From contig OX597823.1 in NCBI GenBank assembly GCA_951406725.2, positions 80,662,001-80,726,000 on the forward strand: 64,000 bases of DNA, written 5' to 3'. Origin of the DNA: Octopus vulgaris. Lineage: Eukaryota. This document shows positions 11,110 to 62,688 of this stretch, in pieces. How positions within the stretch are numbered: position 1 is the first letter of the stretch; each line of letters begins with the position of its first letter. The position numbers were made by a program, and so were the translations under genes. The notes below the pieces were generated by a model, which did not search any database, was not told where the DNA came from, and saw only the letters and a program-made list of their open reading frames with translations.

Positions 11110-11960
11110 TTCCTCTTATTGATTCTTGTCATCCCTCCAGAACTTTGACTTCCTAATCTTCAGGAAACTCGAATGCTTGGTCAATGTCAAACTCTCCCTA
11201 GAGTCCTGCGACTCTCGGTCTACGCAACTGCTCGTCTCTATCGCTTCCTTGTTTACTTTTCCTCTTTCACGCTTGCTCCTCTTTGCTAACATCCTTTCCT
11301 CTCCAACATAGACTATTTCCAACCGACAGATGGGTGAAGCTCTATCACAGTGGAAAGAGCTGGGTTTGTGAGTTCCTATTACAGTTGAGGATAGACGGAA
11401 ACAGAGGGTATGCGACAATCTGCGGTCAGATGCCACTTTCAACACTCTCCTTGATCAATCTGATCAATTTTCAAGGTGTCGTTCTTCTTTCAAATAGTGC
11501 AAAATTCTCGAGAGAGTGGATTAATGCCTTTCCTGTGGTCAACATTGGAAGTCTACTCAGTCTTGAACACCGCATTTCCATCGCACTCTGAGTGGAAGCT
11601 GGCGTCTGTAGAGGGCTGATATGCCGCTGTGATAAACCTATCGACCCCACAGGTCTTCACGGTCTGTCTTGCCGCCTAAATGCTGGTCGCTTCGCTCGTC
11701 ACACCGAGCTAAACCTTATCATTAAGTGGGCCCTGGCTCGGATTAATATCCCCTCAGTTCTGGAGCCGTCGGGATTATCCAGAAAGAGACCAGATGGTTT
11801 TACTTTCTGTCCTTGGATAGAGGTGGGTGCCTCATTTGGGATGTCACAGTCTGCAACTCTTTTGCTCCCAACGCCTTAGCCTTGTCATCGCCCGTGCTTA
11901 TAATGCAAACGTGCTGGCTTGCTTCAGTTGGTTCCGTAGAACCTTGTGGTGTGCGACCAG
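11110..11960 (+). pseudogene. 3' fragment of a CRE-like non-LTR retrotransposon (zinc knuckle plus restriction-like endonuclease)
   Basis: REWINAFP...RISIAL*; CRCDKPIDPTGLHGLSC; ARHTELN; LEPSGLSRKRPDG; frameshifted LIWDVTV. This is the motif order of PD-(D/E)XK RLE domains. Confidence 0.75.
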
Positions 11961-12634
11961 TTGAAGCGCTTGGTGCTGCACTGTTGGGTTTCGTTTTTTC
12001 CTTTTTTTAAAAAGATAAATGTGTTCAACAGAAAGGATACACTAATGAGTTGGAGCTTCAGAATAAGTTTTACTGGTTATATTTTACTTTTAGGATCATT
12101 AAGTAAAGATGTATCTGTGATGAAAACAATTCTCCACAAATGATTTCAATTCATATAATAAATCTCTGAACGAGGCGATGTTCTCCTGGGGCTACAAGCT
12201 AAAGTAACACCCACCCTTAGTGGTTAACCATATTGAGATGGCAAATATACCTCACATTGTCGTGCAGTTACTGTTTATACCTCGTTCAGAGATTTATTAT
12301 TGCTTGCATACAGTTTTTCGAGATCAGTGACGAAAAGTTACTGGAAAAATGATATAAGTATTTGCATTGGGACCCCTTTCATCGAAAACCGGTGTTTTGA
12401 CTCGTCTAGGGACCCCTCTTTCATCTGCGTATTGAGAAGTTAGCTGCCTATTTTGTTGAGTGAGTTCGTTTTTTGTTCGTCGTTGTTTGTGTTTGCTCGT
12501 GAATTGAACAGTTGTCCGTTGTGTGACAGTAATTTTCGCCCTACGGGGCTGAAAATTCTGTGTATAAACATTGTTATTACCTTCGGGGTGATTTTTTTTT
12601 TTTTTTTGAAAAATTGGTTCTCATAATTTGAGAA

Positions 12635-14040
12635 ATGGAGTTCGACTTGGCGTCGAGGAGCGACTTTCCCGTGATGGGAAAAGGCGAACAGAAGGATATC
12701 GAGGTTAGAAAACAGTCTTTTTCGGCCGCAGTGGACGGAACCGTAACGGAAGTGGAATTCAAAATAGAACAGTTGTTCGAATACCGGAACTTGGTCAAAA
12801 AGGAAGGCAACGAAATAAAACTGGTACCGCTGCAAGCGATATTACAGGAAATAAAGGCCAAGACAGTCGTGTACAAGGTTTACAGTAACAAAGAGAAAAA
12901 AATAATGGACGTGAAGAACGAAATAGTAGAGAAGTGCTTGTCCCCGGTGTGGAGCAAAATTCGCTACGTCGGTCGAGGTGCCCGCAGCGCTACCGTTGAA
13001 GCACATTTCGACTCGGCTGATGTGGCAAGAGAGATTTCATCGATGACCTTAAAAAGTGAGGACATCATGTTACTACCTACCTATATGGGCAAAAGAACTG
13101 CGAAACTATATGTGGAAGACATACCAAGAGGATATGATATAATGTGGGTAGCAGCGGCGGTTCTGCACGACGTAGAGCAGAAAGTCTCAATTCTGCAGAT
13201 GAAAAGGAAAGAAGAGGTAAACTGGAAGGGATAAGCGCTCGAACTCCTCGTTCAAGCAGAAAATAATGTGCTAGAAAACTTACCCGATAGGGTATTTATT
13301 GAGGAGGGAATTACAATGAGAGTGTCAGTGGAGGGGCACAGACCTAGGTGTTTCAAATGTGGCGAAAAGGGTCACGTCCGCTCGAACTGCATAAAAAAAA
13401 GAAAAACAGCGAAGCCCCTCCTCAAAGTGCTTCAAACACAGAAAAAGAAAAGGCGGAAAAAGACCCCAAGACTGCGACAAGGAAGGGAATCGAAACGGAA
13501 GATAAAAATGAACAAATGGAATTTACACAGGTGACACACAAAAGAAAAAAGAAAATACCCTGGACTCCCCTCCCCAAACAAAGAAAAAATCAGCAAACAC
13601 CGCAGAGATACATACAAAACAAATTCCCCAGCCCTACCCCCACGGCACTGTATTCATTGAAACACAGTTCGCCAAGCCCCTCCCCATAAAACAAGATTGG
13701 AAAAAATTGATTAAAAAAATGAAAAGATTGTAGCATTCGACGAGAGGAATGATAGAGTGTTTAAGTATTTAAAATTTTCAAAACTGAAATTATTCAGTAA
13801 GTCTGCAGACACTAAGTCGACCACTCGTTTTGCAAAAATAAAGGAAGACGAGTGGAAGGAAAAAACACTCCAAGAACATTTTTAAAATAACCTTATCAGA
13901 GACGTAACTAACGAAATACTGGAGGGCAAACTTACTATAACCCCGGCAACCACACCTACCCAGAGCCCGATGGCAACGCCGGTTAAGAGCCCTGCAGCTA
14001 CGACCACAAGGGAGGAAGAAGGTGAAGCATGCAGATTTAA
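12635..14040 (+). pseudogene. LINE ORF1 (gag-like, zinc knuckle), disrupted; 3' end approximate
   Basis: 199-aa ORF, in-frame TAA at 13232-13234, same frame continuing to CFKCGEKGHVRSNC, then frameshifts in A-runs. Confidence 0.8.
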
Positions 14041-14091
14041 ACTGTCATGCTCCCTGTCCCAACCGTAAGTTTTTTTTCTCTCTCTCCGACA

Positions 14092-17000
14092 ATGGCAAAG
14101 CTGGGTTGTGTGAATGTGCGTGGAATGGGGTCGAAATGGAAACAAATTTGTCTCCTGAACGACCTCACGACACACGGAGTGGACGTAGCTATTGTAACCG
14201 AGTCCAAGATGAACGGGGCCCAAGCGTTCTCGCCTCTTCTAAATGGTTTCGAGAAATTTATTTCTCCTAGCCGAGGAAGAGCTTGGACTTGCAGGTAAGT
14301 ACTGTCTTTCTGGACCCAGAAGGCAGGCTGGTCGTTCTGGATGTGACCCACGTAAGTAAACAGTCCTTCAGGTTGGTAGCTGTCTACGCTCCGAATGAGT
14401 GTAGGCAGTCGGGTTTTTTTCGGAATCTGGAGCACTTTTTAGTGACCTCGAAAACGGTAGTCTTAGTAGGGGACTTTAACACTGTCCTCGAAGCGCGGGT
14501 CGACAGTGTTGGCTCAACCAATAGGAAGGGGAACCCTAGCCTCAAGGGTCTACTAGAGAGCTTTAATCTAGTAGACCGTTATCGACTGGATGAGCCGAGC
14601 GTTCCACAGCGGACGTGGAGTAACAACGACGGCTCACGCAGATCGTATATAGATAGGATATTCGTTAGAAAAAGAGATAAGGATACGTTTAGTTGTCCAC
14701 AGTTTCACATTGTGCCTTACACGGATCACAAATTTGTGACTTGTAGGGTGCAATTAGATAAGTGCCATAGACAGGGACCCGGGTACTGGAAGCTGAACAA
14801 GTCTATTTTGAATTGTGAAGACTTCCGTACCCGGATTAAGGTGTTAGTACAGAGGGCATTATGTGGCACCATCATTAACAATAGATGGTGGCACTCCCTC
14901 AAAAGAGCCATTCGTTCAGAGTCCATTAGATTTAGCAATCAGCTAAGGTTAGATAGGTCTAGGATAGAGGACGATTTAGTTAAGAATCTAAACGAGGCAA
15001 TGGAATCTGGCTCTGCATCCGGAGTGATGGCGGCAGGGACTGTATTGTACCGTCACCTTAACTCCAAACACGAAGGTTGCAGAATTAGAGCTAAGCTACG
15101 CGCAGGGAAACGAGAAGGTATTAACGTTGCCGGATGGGCCCGTCGAGTGGAGAGTCAGATAGGTAACAAAGCTTCAATCAAGTCTTTAACTGACGAACAG
15201 GGACACAAGATCTATGGACAGGAGGAGATGCAAAAGTTTCTTCACCAGCATTTCGCCCGCGCGTTCGGGGTGGGTGGGTCGCTGGAGCGGAGGAAGGCCT
15301 TAAAGGACTTCCTAGCCGGCGGACCGCGGCTCTCGGGGCGTGAGGTGGAGTGCTGTGAAGGAGCGATTACTCCCGCGGAGATAGAGGGGGTGCTGGCCGG
15401 ATACTCCGGGGAGAAGTCGCCGTGGTTGGATGGTCTGCCCTACGAGTTTTATCAAAGTATGCCGGACTTGTTCGGGGGAATACTGGCAGTCGTCTACGCG
15501 AACTGGCAGCAGAACGGGAGAATTCCCAGTTCTGTAAGCCGGGGAGTGGTGACGCTAATCCAGAAAGACCCGAGCAAGGGGGATAACATTAGTAATTACA
15601 GGCCCATAACTCTACTTAATGTAGAGTTAAAGATTTTGGCCAAGGTGTTGGCAAAAAGGTTGACGACTGTCGTAGAGAAACTTGTAGAGAAAGCACAGAC
15701 ATGTGCAATTCCAGGCAGGTCGATCCAGGACAATCTTCACCTTATACGCTACACCTTAGATAGGGTGGGTAAATTAACCGGCAAGGGCGGAGTAATGGTC
15801 CATTTAGACCAAAGTAAAGCGTTCGATAGGGTAGACCATAAGTACCTGGCGATGGTCCTCGAAGCGGCTGGACTGGGGCCTGAATTTCGCGGGTGGATCT
15901 CCGCTATGTATAGCGGCATCAAGTCCACCGTCCAGATAAACGGTTACCTAACGGAACCGTTTTCGATCGAATGTTCAGTTCGTCAAGGGTGCCCCTTGTC
16001 ACCACTTTTGTACGTGTTGGCTCTCGAGCCATTGCTGCGAAAGTTGGAGAGGCTGGGAAGTAACCCGGATGAGATCGGAGGCGGGAGGACGGTTTCTGCT
16101 TATGCGGATGACGTCACCCTCATCGTGTCCAATGAGGCTCAGCTACCTTGTGTAGAAGATGCTATCAGAGGATACGAGGCGGTGGCAGGAGCAAAAGTTA
16201 ACAAGGACAAGTCGATTGGCTTACGCCTCGGCACCTGGAGGAGCAAGTCGATATCGTCCAGTGCCGTGGGACACTGGACAGATGGTCCTGTTAAGTTGCT
16301 AGGCGTTTGGTTTGGGCCAGACTCCCAAACGGAGAGGAATTGGAGTGAGGTGACGGGCAAGGTGGAGGCCATAGTACGGACCTGGTCCGGAAGGTTTCTG
16401 TCCTTGAAAGGAAGGGCGGAGGTGGTACAGATGTTCATTGCATCTGTAATCACTTACCGCCTGACCGTTGTCCCTTGCCCCGATTCATGGCTTAGCAAGT
16501 TGGAGCGAATCCTTTTCCGCTTTTTGTGGAAGGGAGGAAAGCCACTTGTGAGGCGCTCCGTTTGCTGCCAGGAACCGTTAAAGAGTGGGTTAGGAATGCC
16601 TTGGTTGATGATGCGCAGACATGCGTTGAGGCTGAAGCATCTCTAGCACCACCTGGAGGGTGATAAGGTGTGGAGTCCGCTGGCAGGGGAATTTTTCCCG
16701 AGACCGGCTTCCTTAGTGAATTTTAAACCCGGTTGCATCAAAAGACGGAATCTGACTTTATGGCAAAAGGAGTGCCGACAGGCACTCACGCTGATCCACA
16801 AGGCGGGCAAGGCCGGCAAGGCCGGCTGCGGAAATACCACCTCGGTATTTTATAGCAGGCTGGTAGAGGCAAAGAACGACGACGTCCTAGGAGGGGCTCT
16901 GGGGTTCGACGAAGACCAGCTTACCAACCTGTTTAAAAAGACTTTCAGGACGGGGTATTTGGATAATTTCCAAAGATCCCTGGTCTGGCAGTGTTATAGG

Positions 17001-17459
17001 AATGCTTTACCTGTTCGCGAGAAGTTATCGCGGAACGGAATTTCAGTGCCACCGACATGTCCAAGATGCCGGTTGGACGATGAAACCGTCCAGCACGCTT
17101 TTGTACACTGTCGGCAGTTGTTAGACTTGATAAGTTACGCAGAACACGTGTTATTGCATCTGGGACGAGTACAGCTGTCGGCTGAGTCTATGATTAAGAT
17201 GATACCGCCAACTGGACTCTCGAAGGAAAGTGAGGCATGTTTTCACTGCACGGTTGCAGTAGTAAAAGAATGCATGTGGCGTACAAGAATGGAAGGAGTC
17301 GCAATAGGATCCTTTGTCTCAGGCCCCGGCTTGCTCACTTACTTCAGATATCATCTGAAGAGCAAAATGGGGCTGGAAAAGAAGACCTTACCACGAGGTG
17401 TGTATGAAAAAATATGGAAGGAAGTGGCGAAAAAGGTGGGTGTCAGAAACCCAGTTTAA
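14092..17459 (+). pseudogene. LINE ORF2: AP endonuclease, reverse transcriptase and C-terminal zinc finger; one frameshift (~14280) and one stop (16644-16646)
   Basis: CVNVRG, VTESK, VYAP, GDFN, SYIDRIF, TDH (APE); DGLPYEFY, NYRPITLLN, LDQSKAFDRV, VRQGCPLSP, YADD (RT); CPRC...ETVQHAFVHC. Confidence 0.95.
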
Positions 17460-17721
17460 CTATGGATGGAGAAGAGGAAAGGAAAGCTGCGGGGCCTTAT
17501 AGGTTGCCGGGGTTGAAAATATATCGGTAAGATTTCAATCTAATGTAATGTTATATTAGTCAATGCAAAGGACAATTTAAATACAGTTTTTTGTATAATG
17601 AATGATCCATATATTGTGGAAATTTTTAAACGAACCACTTAACTGTTTTTTTTATGTATGTCCTGTATTGTTCTTCTATGTGCTGATTTTATAATCGTAA
17701 TAAAGAATTAATCGAAAACCG

Positions 17722-17780
17722 GTGATTGTCGTACGCTGATGACCGGTCAATACCTAGAAACTGCAGTCCGTGCGTATCAC
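17722..17780 (+). ncRNA. Type I minimal hammerhead ribozyme, predicted cleavage after C17768
   Basis: Stem I GTGAT..CGTACG / CGTGCG.ATCAC; CTGATGA at 17736-17742; stem II GGT-CAAT-ACC with a mismatched base; GAAA at 17757-17760; palindromic CTGCAG helix III; GTC triplet. Confidence 0.75.
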
Positions 17781-18239
17781 TTAGGTCGACGAGGGAAGGA
17801 TGACCTCCCTTTGCAAATAGCCAACTGGAGGCGATGTTCTCCTGGGGCTACAAGCTACAGTAACACTCACCCTTAGTGGTTAGCCATATTGAGATGGCAA
17901 ATATACCTCACATTGATTTCAATTCAGTTTTAGCAGAAAAATTTGGAAGAATTAGAATAAAGCTCTCCGGTAATTTTCTTTCATGTAAATAAATGCTAAT
18001 GTTCCTTTAAGAATTTGCCAGCAAAACCTTATAAAATAACAATGCTTTTATATGTTATATATGAAAATAAAGATCACACTGACGTCTGTAAATTTGTCGA
18101 CACAGTAATACAATACTCAAATACGAAAGTTTCTTCATAACTGTCCCTCTATTTTTTCCGAATCCTCGAATCAAATTTACTAGTCAATACATACATACAT
18201 ACATACATACATACATACATACAGACAGAATTATGTATG

Positions 18240-20671: not shown

Positions 20672-22445
20672 CTCAGCTTGTTCAAATGGACTAAGGGAAG
20701 AGTAAGAGAGCAATGCCGTTTGCAATACCTATGATATGGAGAGAGCCAAAGGATCATTTTATGGACTGTTATTTCTTCAACGTTAATGTATGTGGGTTTT
20801 CTGTAAAGATCAAGCATAAGATTGTGTATCCAACTTGGAATAAGCAAAAAGACCTGTACCCAACAAGGATGCTGATCTTCCTATTCCAATACAACCAGAA
20901 AATGGCCTTCAGATGTCTGACGAAGATGTATTTCCTGAAGAAAATACTACTGCTGTGAAAGACACCGAAGTGGATGCAGATTTCCTGATTGAAAATGAAG
21001 ATGTACCACAGAAATTTTCTCAAGGAGAGTTAAATGATTTAATTAGAGAGTTGTCATTGTCGAAGGATAAAGCTGAACTATTCTCGCCTACAAGAAAAGG
21101 GTCTGCTTAAGAAGGATGTTTGTATTACTCATTTCAGGAAGACAAATAGGGATCTGACTTCATGCTTCTCTGTTGATGGACCACTTTGTTTCAGTAATAA
21201 CACTGATGAGTTATTTCGCTGTTTGTTCCAAGAGCATGTCCCAGTTGAATGGCGCTTATTCATTGATTCATCTAAGAGAAGCCTCAAGGCAGTACTACTA
21301 CACAATAGCAATAAGAAACCATCCATTCCCTTAGAACATTCAGTGCACATGAAAGAGTGTTATGAAAACATGCAAGTACTCCTCAATGCCATAAAATATA
21401 CAAACTACAGCTGGAAAATATGTGGAGACTTGAAGGTGATTGGAATGTTGATAGGAATGCAATCTGGGTTCACGAAATATTGTTGCTTTTTAAACCTATG
21501 GGACAGTCGTACAACTAACAAGCACTATGTGCAATCAGAGTGGCCCTTGCGAAAATCATATGAGCCGGGAGTTTCTAGCGTCCAGAGTAAGCTACTTTTA
21601 AACCGAGAAAATGTTCTTCTTCCTCCTCTTCACATAAAGCTTGGCCTCATGAAACAATTTGTGAAGACACTTGCCAGGAAAAGCTCAAAAGGTTTTGAAT
21701 ATGTGAAGGCCAAATTTCCAAAAATCACCGAGGCAAAACTGAAGGAGGACGTATTCATAGGTCCGCAGATAAAAGAACTGAAGGACAACCACTTCATCAC
21801 AGCACTGGATGAGATTGAGCTTAAAGCCTGGGAATCCTTCAAATGACTCTGTGAAAATTTCCTAGTCAACAAGAGATCTCTAGAGTTTAGAAATGGAGTG
21901 AAATGTCTTCTAGACTCCTACGCTGCAACGGGCTGTCGGATGTCACTAAAAGTCCATTTCCTTGATTCATATCTGAACTTTTTTGCAGAGAACCTTGGAG
22001 CAGTGTCTGATGAGCAATGGGAATGCTTTCATCAAGACATTGCATCAATGGAACAACAATATCAAGGATTTTGAAATGCAGGAATGTTAGCTGGCTACTG
22101 TTGGATGGTATACAGGGATGAACCTGAGACAAAACACCATAGAAAGTCCAAATCCCAAAGATTTTAAGTTGTTATGCATTTGAGTGTATTCTAGCTTATT
22201 TGTACACAATAATTTTAATTTTGTACAATAAAAAGCCATGAAATTATCGTATCTTGTATTCAATATACTTTATATAGACATTCTTTACGTATCATATAAG
22301 TTAAAACAGCAGGCATCATTTACATGAAAATGTGACCTGATAGAGGAAATCGGACTTCAGATTCGTAATCAGCATCAAACTTTAACCCAGAAAAGTCAAC
22401 CAGCAACTCTGGTGATTAAAAAAAGTTTCATTTTGTTGACCAGTG
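20672..22445 (+). mobile_element. 5'-truncated Chapaev3-like (CMC) DNA transposon with a decayed transposase
   Basis: MIWREPKDH..DCYF, FSQGELNDLIREL, EWRLFIDSSKRSLKAVLLHN, ICGDLKV, LPPLHIKLGLMKQFVK, MSLKVHFL, AVSDEQ..FHQDI. Right end ...TTTTGTTGACCAGTG followed by TAA. Confidence 0.75.
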
Positions 22446-35415: not shown

Positions 35416-36348
35416 AGCAGAGAAACGATTGCAAATTACTGGGTAGTCTACGACACCTTTAGTTATCGGCCAGCCTAGTCATCACATAGGCACCGACTCC
35501 TGGGAGAATGAAGGCGCTCAATACTACGGATCCTGATGGAGGACAATAGTGGCACGACAGCTGATAAACTGAGGACAGCGATGATGAAACAGAATGTGCG
35601 ACACATCATGCCTAACACAAGTGCAAGATCTTGTTGGAAAACGAAGATGGTGATATGATCAGGGCCAGATTTATGGGGGTGCCAAAGGTGTAATTGCCCC
35701 GGGCCCCCATCGACAATGGGTCCCCCCTTAAATTGAGAGCTCCTTTCTACGAGGGATATGGTGCACTTGATACAGGGGGCCCCCTTCACTTCCCAGCAAT
35801 CTTGCATGAAGAGGCTATCTTCCAAAGATCTAGATTCTCTTTAATGATAAATAACCAAAGATTTTCTCCACTTTAGCGACAACAGTTTATAAAGTAAAAA
35901 AAAAAAAAGCTAAAGAAAAGCAAATCTTTCTACTTTAGCGACACCAGTCCCTAAAAATATGTGTGTGTTGTGTGTGTGAAGCTCATCTTTAAAAAAACAA
36001 TGTACACGATAACATTTCCAATCAGTTAAGATCAGAAGCCATGAGAGCCAGTGTCTGGCACCGCATTGCTTGTGGGGAAAAATAAGTTTTATTGTCTCTA
36101 GTTCAATTCCTGTGTTATTGTCTCCAGTTCAATGCGACTGACCAATGATGATCTCAAACTGACCGTTTCCAAATAAAGGGGTGCACACGCACATATTTAT
36201 TCATTGCTAGATAAACAAAGAGACCCCAGCGCATAACGGGTACTTATTTTAATCGTATGAATTCCCCCGTGTAGAACACTAATTGGATTTTTCTGTTTGG
36301 CTGCCAAGATTCCCAAAATTAAGTTTATTGAAAATTTTTTAATTTGGT

Positions 36349-51884: not shown

Positions 51885-52345
51885 TACCGCGTGCGGTACA
51901 TCATTTGCACGATGGGGAGAATATACCGCCACTATTGCCCAAATGACCTGAACATTAGTTTCAAGGTTCATCCAAGGCTGGGACCACGGGCCATATGTCC
52001 GCTGCCCAATTCAGGATCACAACATATAGGTACACTGCGACATAATTTCTTTTCCTTAACAGGCCCTGCCCTGTTTGACATTGTCCCAAAACTGATCAAA
52101 GAGGAAAAGGATCCCATCACCTTTAAACATGTACCGATAGTGATAAAAATCAAACATCCAGTCAACGTCATGGTTTTTGGAGTAATTACTAGTGATGGCG
52201 ACGTTATACCCCCATCCATTTTCCCGCACGACCTCAAGCTCTGCCCCGGGTCAAGAACGTAGCTGCTGGAAGGTCCTATGTCTAGCAACAGGACTCTGCA
52301 CCATGTCACACAAGCAGGGGAACCCAGTCATGGCTATCAGACAAT
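51885..52345 (+). mobile_element. Chimera of a LINE 3' fragment (51885-52126) and a maT-like fragment (52127-52345)
   Basis: First part is an inverted copy of 52580-52822; second part is a direct copy of 54160-54377. Confidence 0.8.
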
Positions 52346-52439
52346 ATATATATATACATAGATATATACATACATATATATATAAAACGTAGATAAAACT
52401 TAGATATGTTTCGACCAAAGATTGGTCCAAACCATGTCT

Positions 52440-52819
52440 AACTTAATAGCACCACGTGATAGGATTATCTAAATTTTGTGGTATTATGGTCAATTCAAGT
52501 AGTGAGTTCTTGTTGAGTGAGTTGTAGCCAGGTATGGGTGGCTTATCTGGTATTCCTTGTAGAAATTTGTCCAGACCCCGTTTAAAGGTGATGGGATCCT
52601 TTTCCTCTTTGATCAGTTTTGGGACAATGTCAAACAGGACAGGGCCTGTTGAAGAAAAGAAATTATGTCGCAGTGTACCTATATGATGTGATCCTGAATT
52701 GGGCAGCGGACATATGGCCCGTGGTCCCAGCCTTGGCTGAACCTTGAAACTGATGTTCAGGTCCTTAGGGCAATAGTGGCGGTATATTCTCCCCATCGTG
52801 CAAATGATGTACCGCAGCG

Positions 52820-62570: not shown

Positions 62571-62688
62571 AAGATTTGGCTGCTATTTCTAGCACGCCCT
62601 GCTACCACGTAACAGGTATTTCGGATCCTTTATCGCAAATAGCTATTACGTGGTAGCAGGGCGTGCTAGAAATAGCAAACAAATCTTT
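62571..62688. repeat. Small fold-back element, ~42-bp arms
   Basis: AAGATTTGGCTGCTATTTCTAGCACGCCCTGCTACCACGTAA / TTACGTGGTAGCAGGGCGTGCTAGAAATAGCAAACAAATCTT. The same end motif occurs near 38322 and 49760. Confidence 0.8.

Follow-up and report, generated by a model that had tools for sequence, protein, structure and literature searches.

In a 64,000-nucleotide stretch of Octopus vulgaris DNA (contig OX597823.1; hereafter the window), a long interspersed nuclear element (LINE) of the L1/Tx1 type interrupts a short repeat that carries a hammerhead ribozyme motif. The LINE group to which it belongs inserts at one fixed position in such hammerhead-bearing repeats. As judged from sequence features, the group probably does so at the repeats' transcription start, borrowing a host promoter of small nuclear RNA (snRNA) type.

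Specificity was assessed across the genome assembly (2.8 Gb, 227 contigs). A search with the LINE 3' end gave 236 candidates, of which 40 were scored, representing 30 loci: the hammerhead repeat comes next in 29, and the target 14-mer plus another LINE in one. The corresponding 5'-end search (189 candidates, 30 loci) placed the repeat's upstream part before 28 copies, and a LINE end plus 14-mer before two. To avoid ranking bias, an exact 24-mer of the LINE 3' end was then counted: it has 51 matches in the genome, and its reversed control none. All 51 adjoin the target: 34 in repeat types A-C; 12 in type D; two in the diverged family E; and three in tandem, where the target 14-mer is followed by another LINE. 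(This census covers copies with the exact 24-mer.) Site and orientation are fixed, and target-site duplications span 14-17 bp. A published yardstick for target specificity is that more than 20% of flanks be of one type (PMC4494074, as excerpted); here the figure is 51/51.

An initial annotation, made from the single copy in the window, had suggested that the family targets a small self-cleaving RNA repeat, and had named unrelated flanks or ordinary poly(A) tails at other copies as the signs that would speak otherwise. The census upholds the suggestion: the tabulated flanks are the same target, and no copy has poly(A).

The window locus and the independence of insertions

The window holds just two exact copies of ATCGAAAACCGGTG, at 12381-12394 and 17711-17724, and its minus strand has none. 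The LINE lies between, splitting ~430 bp of host repeat. The features of the locus are:

12141..12153, + strand: left copy of the 13-bp target duplication that belongs to the host repeat itself, identical to 17914-17926
12155..12175, - strand: short inverted repeat piece, the reverse complement of 12280-12300 (self-BLAST 21/21)
12172..12380, + strand: upstream part of the ~354-bp hammerhead repeat, with no hammerhead in it
12323..12329, + strand: ATCAGTG, candidate snRNA-type proximal promoter element (putative function), 58 bp before the target
12353..12360, + strand: TATA-like AT-rich stretch, 28 bp before the target
12381..12394, + strand: left target-site duplication, putatively +1 to +14 of the host transcript
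12395..17710, + strand: L1/Tx1-group LINE, family 1 subfamily A, full length, 5316 bp, with broken open reading frames (ORFs)
12635..13531, + strand: first part of ORF1, with a stop at 13235-13237 and later frameshifted; zf-CCHC at 23 bits (cut-off 20.8)
14092..17459, + strand: ORF2, with APE endonuclease, reverse transcriptase (RT) and zf-RVT; frameshift near 14270-14300, stop at 16644-16646
17699..17704, + strand: AATAAA, 6 nt before the LINE end, then GAATTA, without poly(A)
17711..17724, + strand: right target-site duplication; its last 3 nt pair in hammerhead stem I
17722..17781, + strand: type I hammerhead motif with a 2-bp stem III and palindromic loop; predicted cut after 17768
17782..17913, + strand: remainder of the repeat's downstream part
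17914..17926, + strand: right copy of the 13-bp duplication that belongs to the host repeat itself

The limits first assigned to the finding, 12141 and 17926, coincide with the host repeat's own duplication. Re-derived positions agree with the initial annotation on three local points: the 14-bp duplication overlaps the distal 5' strand of stem I, its last 3 nt forming that strand; the LINE ends in AATAAA and GAATTA without poly(A); and predicted cleavage falls 58 nt past the LINE end, the downstream duplication keeping the motif whole. That account of one LINE was sound as observation, and did not take in the promoter-like motif, the insertions in U2, or the further families. Within the upstream part, 88 nt are 96.6% identical to 17828-17915; at empty sites the upstream part runs straight into the 14-mer. 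Inverted upstream pieces are frequent at other repeat copies too.

By its sequence, the LINE is a member of the L1 group (L1/Tx1). It shows two features of that group: ORF2 has Exo_endo_phos, RVT_1, and zf-RVT domains above cut-off in a profile search, and the copies show target-site duplications together with 5'-truncated members sharing fixed 3' ends. The nearest solved structure for ORF2 is human L1 ORF2p (E 2e-57, versus 1e-23 for R2). A CCHC zinc knuckle in ORF1 is a Tx1-clade feature, but is not diagnostic because other clades share it; the Tx1 name appears on none of the homologues listed (120 matches) nor on any of 20 clusters. A homologue at 48% is present in Argonauta. A metagenome scan found no related locus, the cluster database returned generic RT clusters only, and NCBIfam was uninformative.

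Are the copies independent insertions? Among 57 junction pairs from families 1 and 2, the left and right 14-mers are identical in 33 and differ in 20; four were mis-parsed. The identical pairs comprise 10 different sequences, and ten different 14-mers matching on both sides indicate true duplications from independent insertions. Joined at the 14-mer, the flanks give the uninterrupted sequence of an empty site, and 5'-truncated copies carry their own duplications at the same site. Flanks are 50-98% alike between copies, and how alike they are is uncorrelated with LINE identity (rho 0.03 over 30 copies). The tree built from 43 near-full-length copies has a median end branch of 0.014. Subfamily A is star-like, its five target types scattered (16 changes, against a minimum of 4 and a shuffled mean of 18.3). 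An uninterrupted ORF2 is found in 0/43 of these copies, the longest frame being 1037 codons.

These data bear on the idea that the LINE itself has the ribozyme as its 3' end, or that LINE and repeat form one composite copied as a unit. In keeping with it, the eight near-full-length copies of subfamily B form one clade and occur only in repeat subfamily D (the eight type-D copies group at 82/99), and a few truncated copies lack upstream repeat sequence. The split empty sites, the ten duplication alleles matching left to right, the flanks unlinked to LINE identity, and the truncated copies with duplications of their own make it very improbable indeed; for subfamily A, they refute it.

Directional conversion of the left duplication, considered as a general rule for mismatched pairs, found no support: 11 pairs change toward the common type and 8 away. 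About six mismatched pairs look like allele swaps by eye. Separately, an inverted LINE 3' end plus repeat is duplicated tail to tail with a full-length copy at L168 (G000:C2:109083790-109085000), and L105, L119, and L164 appear to be recombinants between families, subfamilies, or target types.

The presumed start site and the U2 insertions

What marks the insertion site? ATCAGT stands ~58-59 bp upstream of 10/10 U1 loci shown (the distance was measured for two), of 8/9 LINE-free U2 genes in one cluster, and in a second U2 cluster; in the diverged repeat family E it stands 55-58 bp upstream. Its background is ~2.4e-4 per position. Vertebrate snRNA proximal elements lie ~60 bp upstream (PMC4494074, in the text available), and an RNA polymerase II (Pol II) promoter of snRNA type is reported for newt hammerhead satellite 2 (as cited in PMC2220036). 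A U6-type promoter was considered and rejected: the motif is absent from eight U6 candidates, and both LINE families begin with T-runs. The U6 tandem array was not picked out by the search motif in the stretch scanned for it.

The motif is enriched where LINEs have landed, at 44/51 occupied loci versus 125/213 empty type-A sites (p=1.6e-4; five loci without upstream target were scored as misses, target types are mixed, and the stretches searched differ slightly). A separate sample of empty sites gave 17/29, and occupied sites restricted to exact type A gave 14/14 (p=0.001). Moreover, the 55-59 bp spacing from the motif holds while the +1 sequence differs between repeat families. This suggests that the insertion site is likely the repeats' transcription start, in which case the element probably borrows the host's snRNA-type promoter.

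Endonuclease preference might instead suffice: a loose motif (pyrimidines, ATCG, GG at +11/+12) would set the site, an internal LINE promoter would start at ATCG, and both upstream motif and ribozyme would be bystanders. ATCG and the later GG are common to repeat and U2 targets; several off-target sites start AT-like and lack the upstream motif; a LINE end lies upstream at 0/10 U1 loci despite the shared motif; and endonuclease-set specificity is the standard Tx1 account (PMC4494074, as far as its available text goes). The enrichment at occupied sites and the constant spacing argue otherwise, and one would further have to assume an internal promoter that by chance starts exactly at the +1 predicted for the host. 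This explanation is rather improbable.

Under promoter borrowing, Pol II would begin transcription at the first base of ATCG, with a U1/U2-like element 58-59 bp above it, and the LINE RNA would thus begin with 14 nt of target. The conserved AATAAA would end that RNA by cleavage and polyadenylation shortly into the downstream target, ahead of the ribozyme core. The APE endonuclease, favoring promoter-bearing copies, would make one nick in the bottom strand, at +1 to -3, and another at +14 in the top strand. The copied 14-nt leader would then pair with the top-strand overhang, closing the 5' junction, or be appended whole where unable to pair.

Related elements use the same sites. Family 2 is ~82% identical to family 1 over ORF2, and its duplication begins at -3; of its 30 loci, 20 adjoin the hammerhead repeat, three are tandem, five adjoin U2, and two are off-target. 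Since it includes copies with uninterrupted ORF2, promoter use, ribozyme use, and endonuclease specificity are assayable. Among seven loci of distant relatives, four adjoin family E, one lies in a tandem array, and two are off-target. These sites are also occupied by a 1.6-kb element that lacks RT and has a single ORF1-like frame of 436 aa: at 30 loci inspected by eye, 24 are at hammerhead repeats or their arrays and six are off-target. The families are stacked together in mixed tandem arrays. Such ORF1-only (HAL1-like) elements retain an intact 436-aa frame at L245 (7020-5386, minus strand), L289, and L299-L328.

The U2 insertions are informative about the start. Full U2 genes stand directly behind four family-2 ends (Rfam). 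Genome-wide there are six AATAAAG-to-U2(+1) junctions (four on C3, one on C23, one on C7); the C7 junction belongs to the ORF1-only group, and the other five, on two chromosomes, are family 2. At 4/4 family-2 5' junctions seen in U2, U2 nt 1-14 are followed by ATCGCTACGTGGTG and then the LINE. ATCGCTACGTGGTG is one base off an allele common among the repeats (the two forms have 216 matches in total), and it starts at ATCG (+1), though the family 2 duplication starts at -3. An extra 14-mer starting at +1 suggests that the donor RNA likely began at ATCG. The U2 copies, 98.6-99.4% alike from one cluster to the other, are nested among young copies that reside in repeats. The nesting points to movement from repeat to U2, with U2 as an apparently recent secondary target reached from the repeats.

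The hammerhead and the LINE 3' end

The motif core comprises CTGATGA (17736-17742) and GAAA (17757-17760). Rfam reports no hammerhead at any threshold in the window, and none at gathering score in 11 loci. For a 75-nt piece, a fold other than the hammerhead has the lowest energy (-16.9 kcal/mol, against -9.5 for the hammerhead), and in the window copy stem II has a C.A mismatch at its base, which together with one private mismatch leaves three pairs. Across 24 copies, 93.1% of cells are paired and 9/21 pairs changed on both sides (the structure was drawn from the window copy, and the 24 sequences are related); 0/500 shuffles scored as high on cells paired, and slid controls reached at most 50.4%. 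C3-G8 becomes U3-A8 in 6 of 24 copies; loop 3 palindromes vary; and pair 10.1-11.1 is non-standard in 11/24, the window copy among them. U3-A8 and loop-3 palindromes are known from dimer-requiring metazoan hammerheads, and those with a 2-bp stem III and palindromic loop are reported to need a dimer (PMC4209133, in its accessible part).

Natural dimers have units of 354 and 375 nt at 39% GC; most repeat copies are partial. In unit length, GC content, and hammerhead type, the host repeat appears to fit the retrozymes that lack long terminal repeats (non-LTR; 150-450 bp in tandem, <50% GC). It is abundant (2103 candidates for one subfamily), and 29/29 other top repeat matches are LINE-free, mostly with a continuous empty site. 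No ORF combining RT and GIY-YIG was recognised by eye among frames of at least 130 aa within 1.5 kb of 29 empty sites. A 145-aa frame ~1 kb upstream of the repeat at L077 resembles, on visual inspection, a fragment of Penelope GIY-YIG. Another family of hammerhead repeats, F, has a U3-A8 core (L304, L306, L312, L315, L321, L324-L328, L247); relatives target it, partly in tandem arrays, and its upstream motif is different.

How does the LINE RNA end? Every related family seen retains AATAAA close ahead of its end, the 3' ends being otherwise diverged. Standard cleavage and polyadenylation occurs 10-30 nt past the signal, which here would be within the target, upstream of the ribozyme core (+26). 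The initial annotation had proposed another route, in which the LINE reads through, the host hammerhead cuts at +58, and the resulting target-matching 3' tail helps priming; this could operate alone or atop promoter borrowing. The ribozyme is indeed left whole, in sense, behind every insertion; no copy has poly(A); the hammerhead covaries, U3-A8 included; and most invertebrate retrozyme hammerheads are reported to be efficient cleavers (PMC7229834, in the sections available). Yet a hammerhead of this dimer type has a second, same-strand hammerhead upstream at only 8/58 occupied sites; the AATAAA is conserved over families with diverged 3' ends; U2-resident copies have no ribozyme; and no examined locus shows the LINE, +1 to +58, and then an unrelated flank. 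In addition, five family-1 copies have a downstream duplication that starts 2-3 nt early with GAATTA still whole, which is not what in-register annealing to a read-through tail gives. Read-through with ribozyme cleavage is unlikely, and trimming of LINE RNA by the ribozyme, although possible, is unsupported. The hammerhead has deletions in 3 of the first 30 loci. Among the pieces listed from four contig runs consulted for RNA evidence, none carried 31 letters on each side of the junction; contigs of this kind bear on neither the starts nor the ends of RNA.

One locus deserves separate mention. At L209/L250 (G000:C16:20780165 region, minus strand), a 5'-truncated ORF1-only element is fused to repeat +1 to +58, whose end coincides with the cut; this is the only real break among 106 distinct motif matches. 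The join favors read-through on its face, but the piece is equally explained as the repeat's own 5' cleavage product. It resembles RtcB-made U6/L1 chimeras (PMC6789731, in the available text). Release of the LINE as a giant retrozyme between two hammerheads was rejected as well, being possible at only 8/58 sites.

On the reading preferred here, start-site insertion with promoter borrowing, the ribozyme is most likely a bystander that marks the host repeat. Several points weigh on the other side: the transcript start and end are predictions from sequence; 2/30 family-2 and 6/30 ORF1-only copies are off-target; the upstream target is missing in 5/51 census copies; and left/right duplication mismatches have no overall direction (11 versus 8). 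In repeat family F, ATCAGT is at that place in 0/5 loci shown, a partly similar motif being there. In all repeat families ATCAGT is the left arm of a small imperfect palindrome (window 12325-12343) that is not in U1/U2, and this half could be kept as an RNA hairpin. The motif excess at occupied sites could stem from an extended endonuclease footprint or from repeat age differences, and the extra 14-mer at U2 junctions may trace to one founding event. The L209 join suggests ribozyme cleavage in vivo, not LINE RNA trimming. Finally, neither polyadenylation nor ribozyme trimming accounts for RT starting exactly at the LINE end without poly(A) copying.

A more elaborate scheme is speculative as well as improbable: a hyperparasitic group steered to the start by snRNA-promoter factors, relying at its 5' end on the host promoter and at its 3' end on the hammerhead, accompanied by ORF1-only passengers, and switching to snRNA genes through the shared promoter.

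Known systems and neighboring features

The hammerhead repeat is a new target class for site-specific LINEs, with a likely promoter-borrowing life cycle: a ribozyme retroelement, entered at its apparent first transcribed base. The U2 copies capture a target switch in progress, from repeat to U2 +1, with copies ~99% alike and the donor leader still at the junction; such junctions are rare direct evidence on specificity change and on 5' junction formation. The data also point to an snRNA-type promoter for an invertebrate retrozyme.

Ty3 and TRE5-A insert at or near RNA polymerase III (Pol III) transcription starts. The octopus LINEs share with them a position tied to a small-RNA promoter; Ty3 and TRE5-A are other element classes or come from other hosts, their targets are Pol III genes, and the likeness shown is one of position, any tethering here being hypothetical.

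For R1Bm, read-through flanking target sequence on the RNA can reportedly aid integration. This possibility, and reliance on a host promoter, would be common ground with R2 and R1. R2, however, has its own hepatitis delta virus (HDV)-like ribozyme to free its 5' end; here the ribozyme is the host's, on the 3' side, and the 5' end would need no processing if insertion is at +1. Both R2 and R1 are co-transcribed with rRNA genes (PMC4494074, PMC5035012, each in its available text).

Target-specific Tx1-clade LINEs are closer parallels: Tx1L inserts in Tx1D, Tx1-Mar in Mariner-N4_AMi, and Kibi and Koshi in microsatellites (PMC4494074, in the part consulted). Shared with these are the APE-RT organization, one fixed position within a target that is multicopy and often itself a transposon, duplications of about 14-17 bp, and tandems around the duplication. 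The difference is the target, a hammerhead repeat at its likely transcription start, of which the part consulted has no example; the comparison is by features. Keno and Utopia insert in U2 snRNA genes, with downstream U2 from nucleotide 39 (PMC4640811, as excerpted). Insertion in U2 genes, sometimes in tandem within U2 arrays, is common to both cases; here, in contrast, U2 follows from nucleotide 1, the promoter is directly upstream, and U2 is secondary to the main target, the repeat.

The host repeat resembles non-LTR retrozymes and the Penelope pseudo-LTR (pLTR) (PMC7229834, PMC4209133, bioRxiv 10.64898/2026.07.22.740005): type I hammerhead, ~354-375 bp, 39% GC, palindromic loop 3, and U3-A8. 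Unlike those retrozymes, its copies are mostly dispersed, of 1-1.5 units, and inverted. The accessible text of these three sources reports no LINE targeting retrozymes, and no LINE with a hammerhead-repeat target came up in a literature search; Repbase reports and papers behind subscription lay beyond that search, so the group may be named there. A 2026 octopus repeat annotation describes 13 recently active L1-Tx1 families, and its main text, as available, contains neither "ribozyme" nor "hammerhead" (PMC13282606). The 1.6-kb partner recalls HAL1, the ORF1-only L1 derivatives (PMC5753468, in part), in encoding ORF1 only; unlike HAL1 it is target-specific, and it is only 31% identical to family-1 ORF1.

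Elsewhere in the window, 11500-12000 looks by eye like the 3' part of a CRE-type LINE (restriction-like-endonuclease), and a second CTGANGA...GAAAC motif, recognized from the motif letters only, lies at 35569-35610. A 237-nt inverted repeat (97%) at 51892-52816 resembles a miniature inverted-repeat transposable element (MITE), as do two long hairpins at 1786-1884 and 62581-62677. An open frame of 267 codons occupies 21043-21846 on the + strand.

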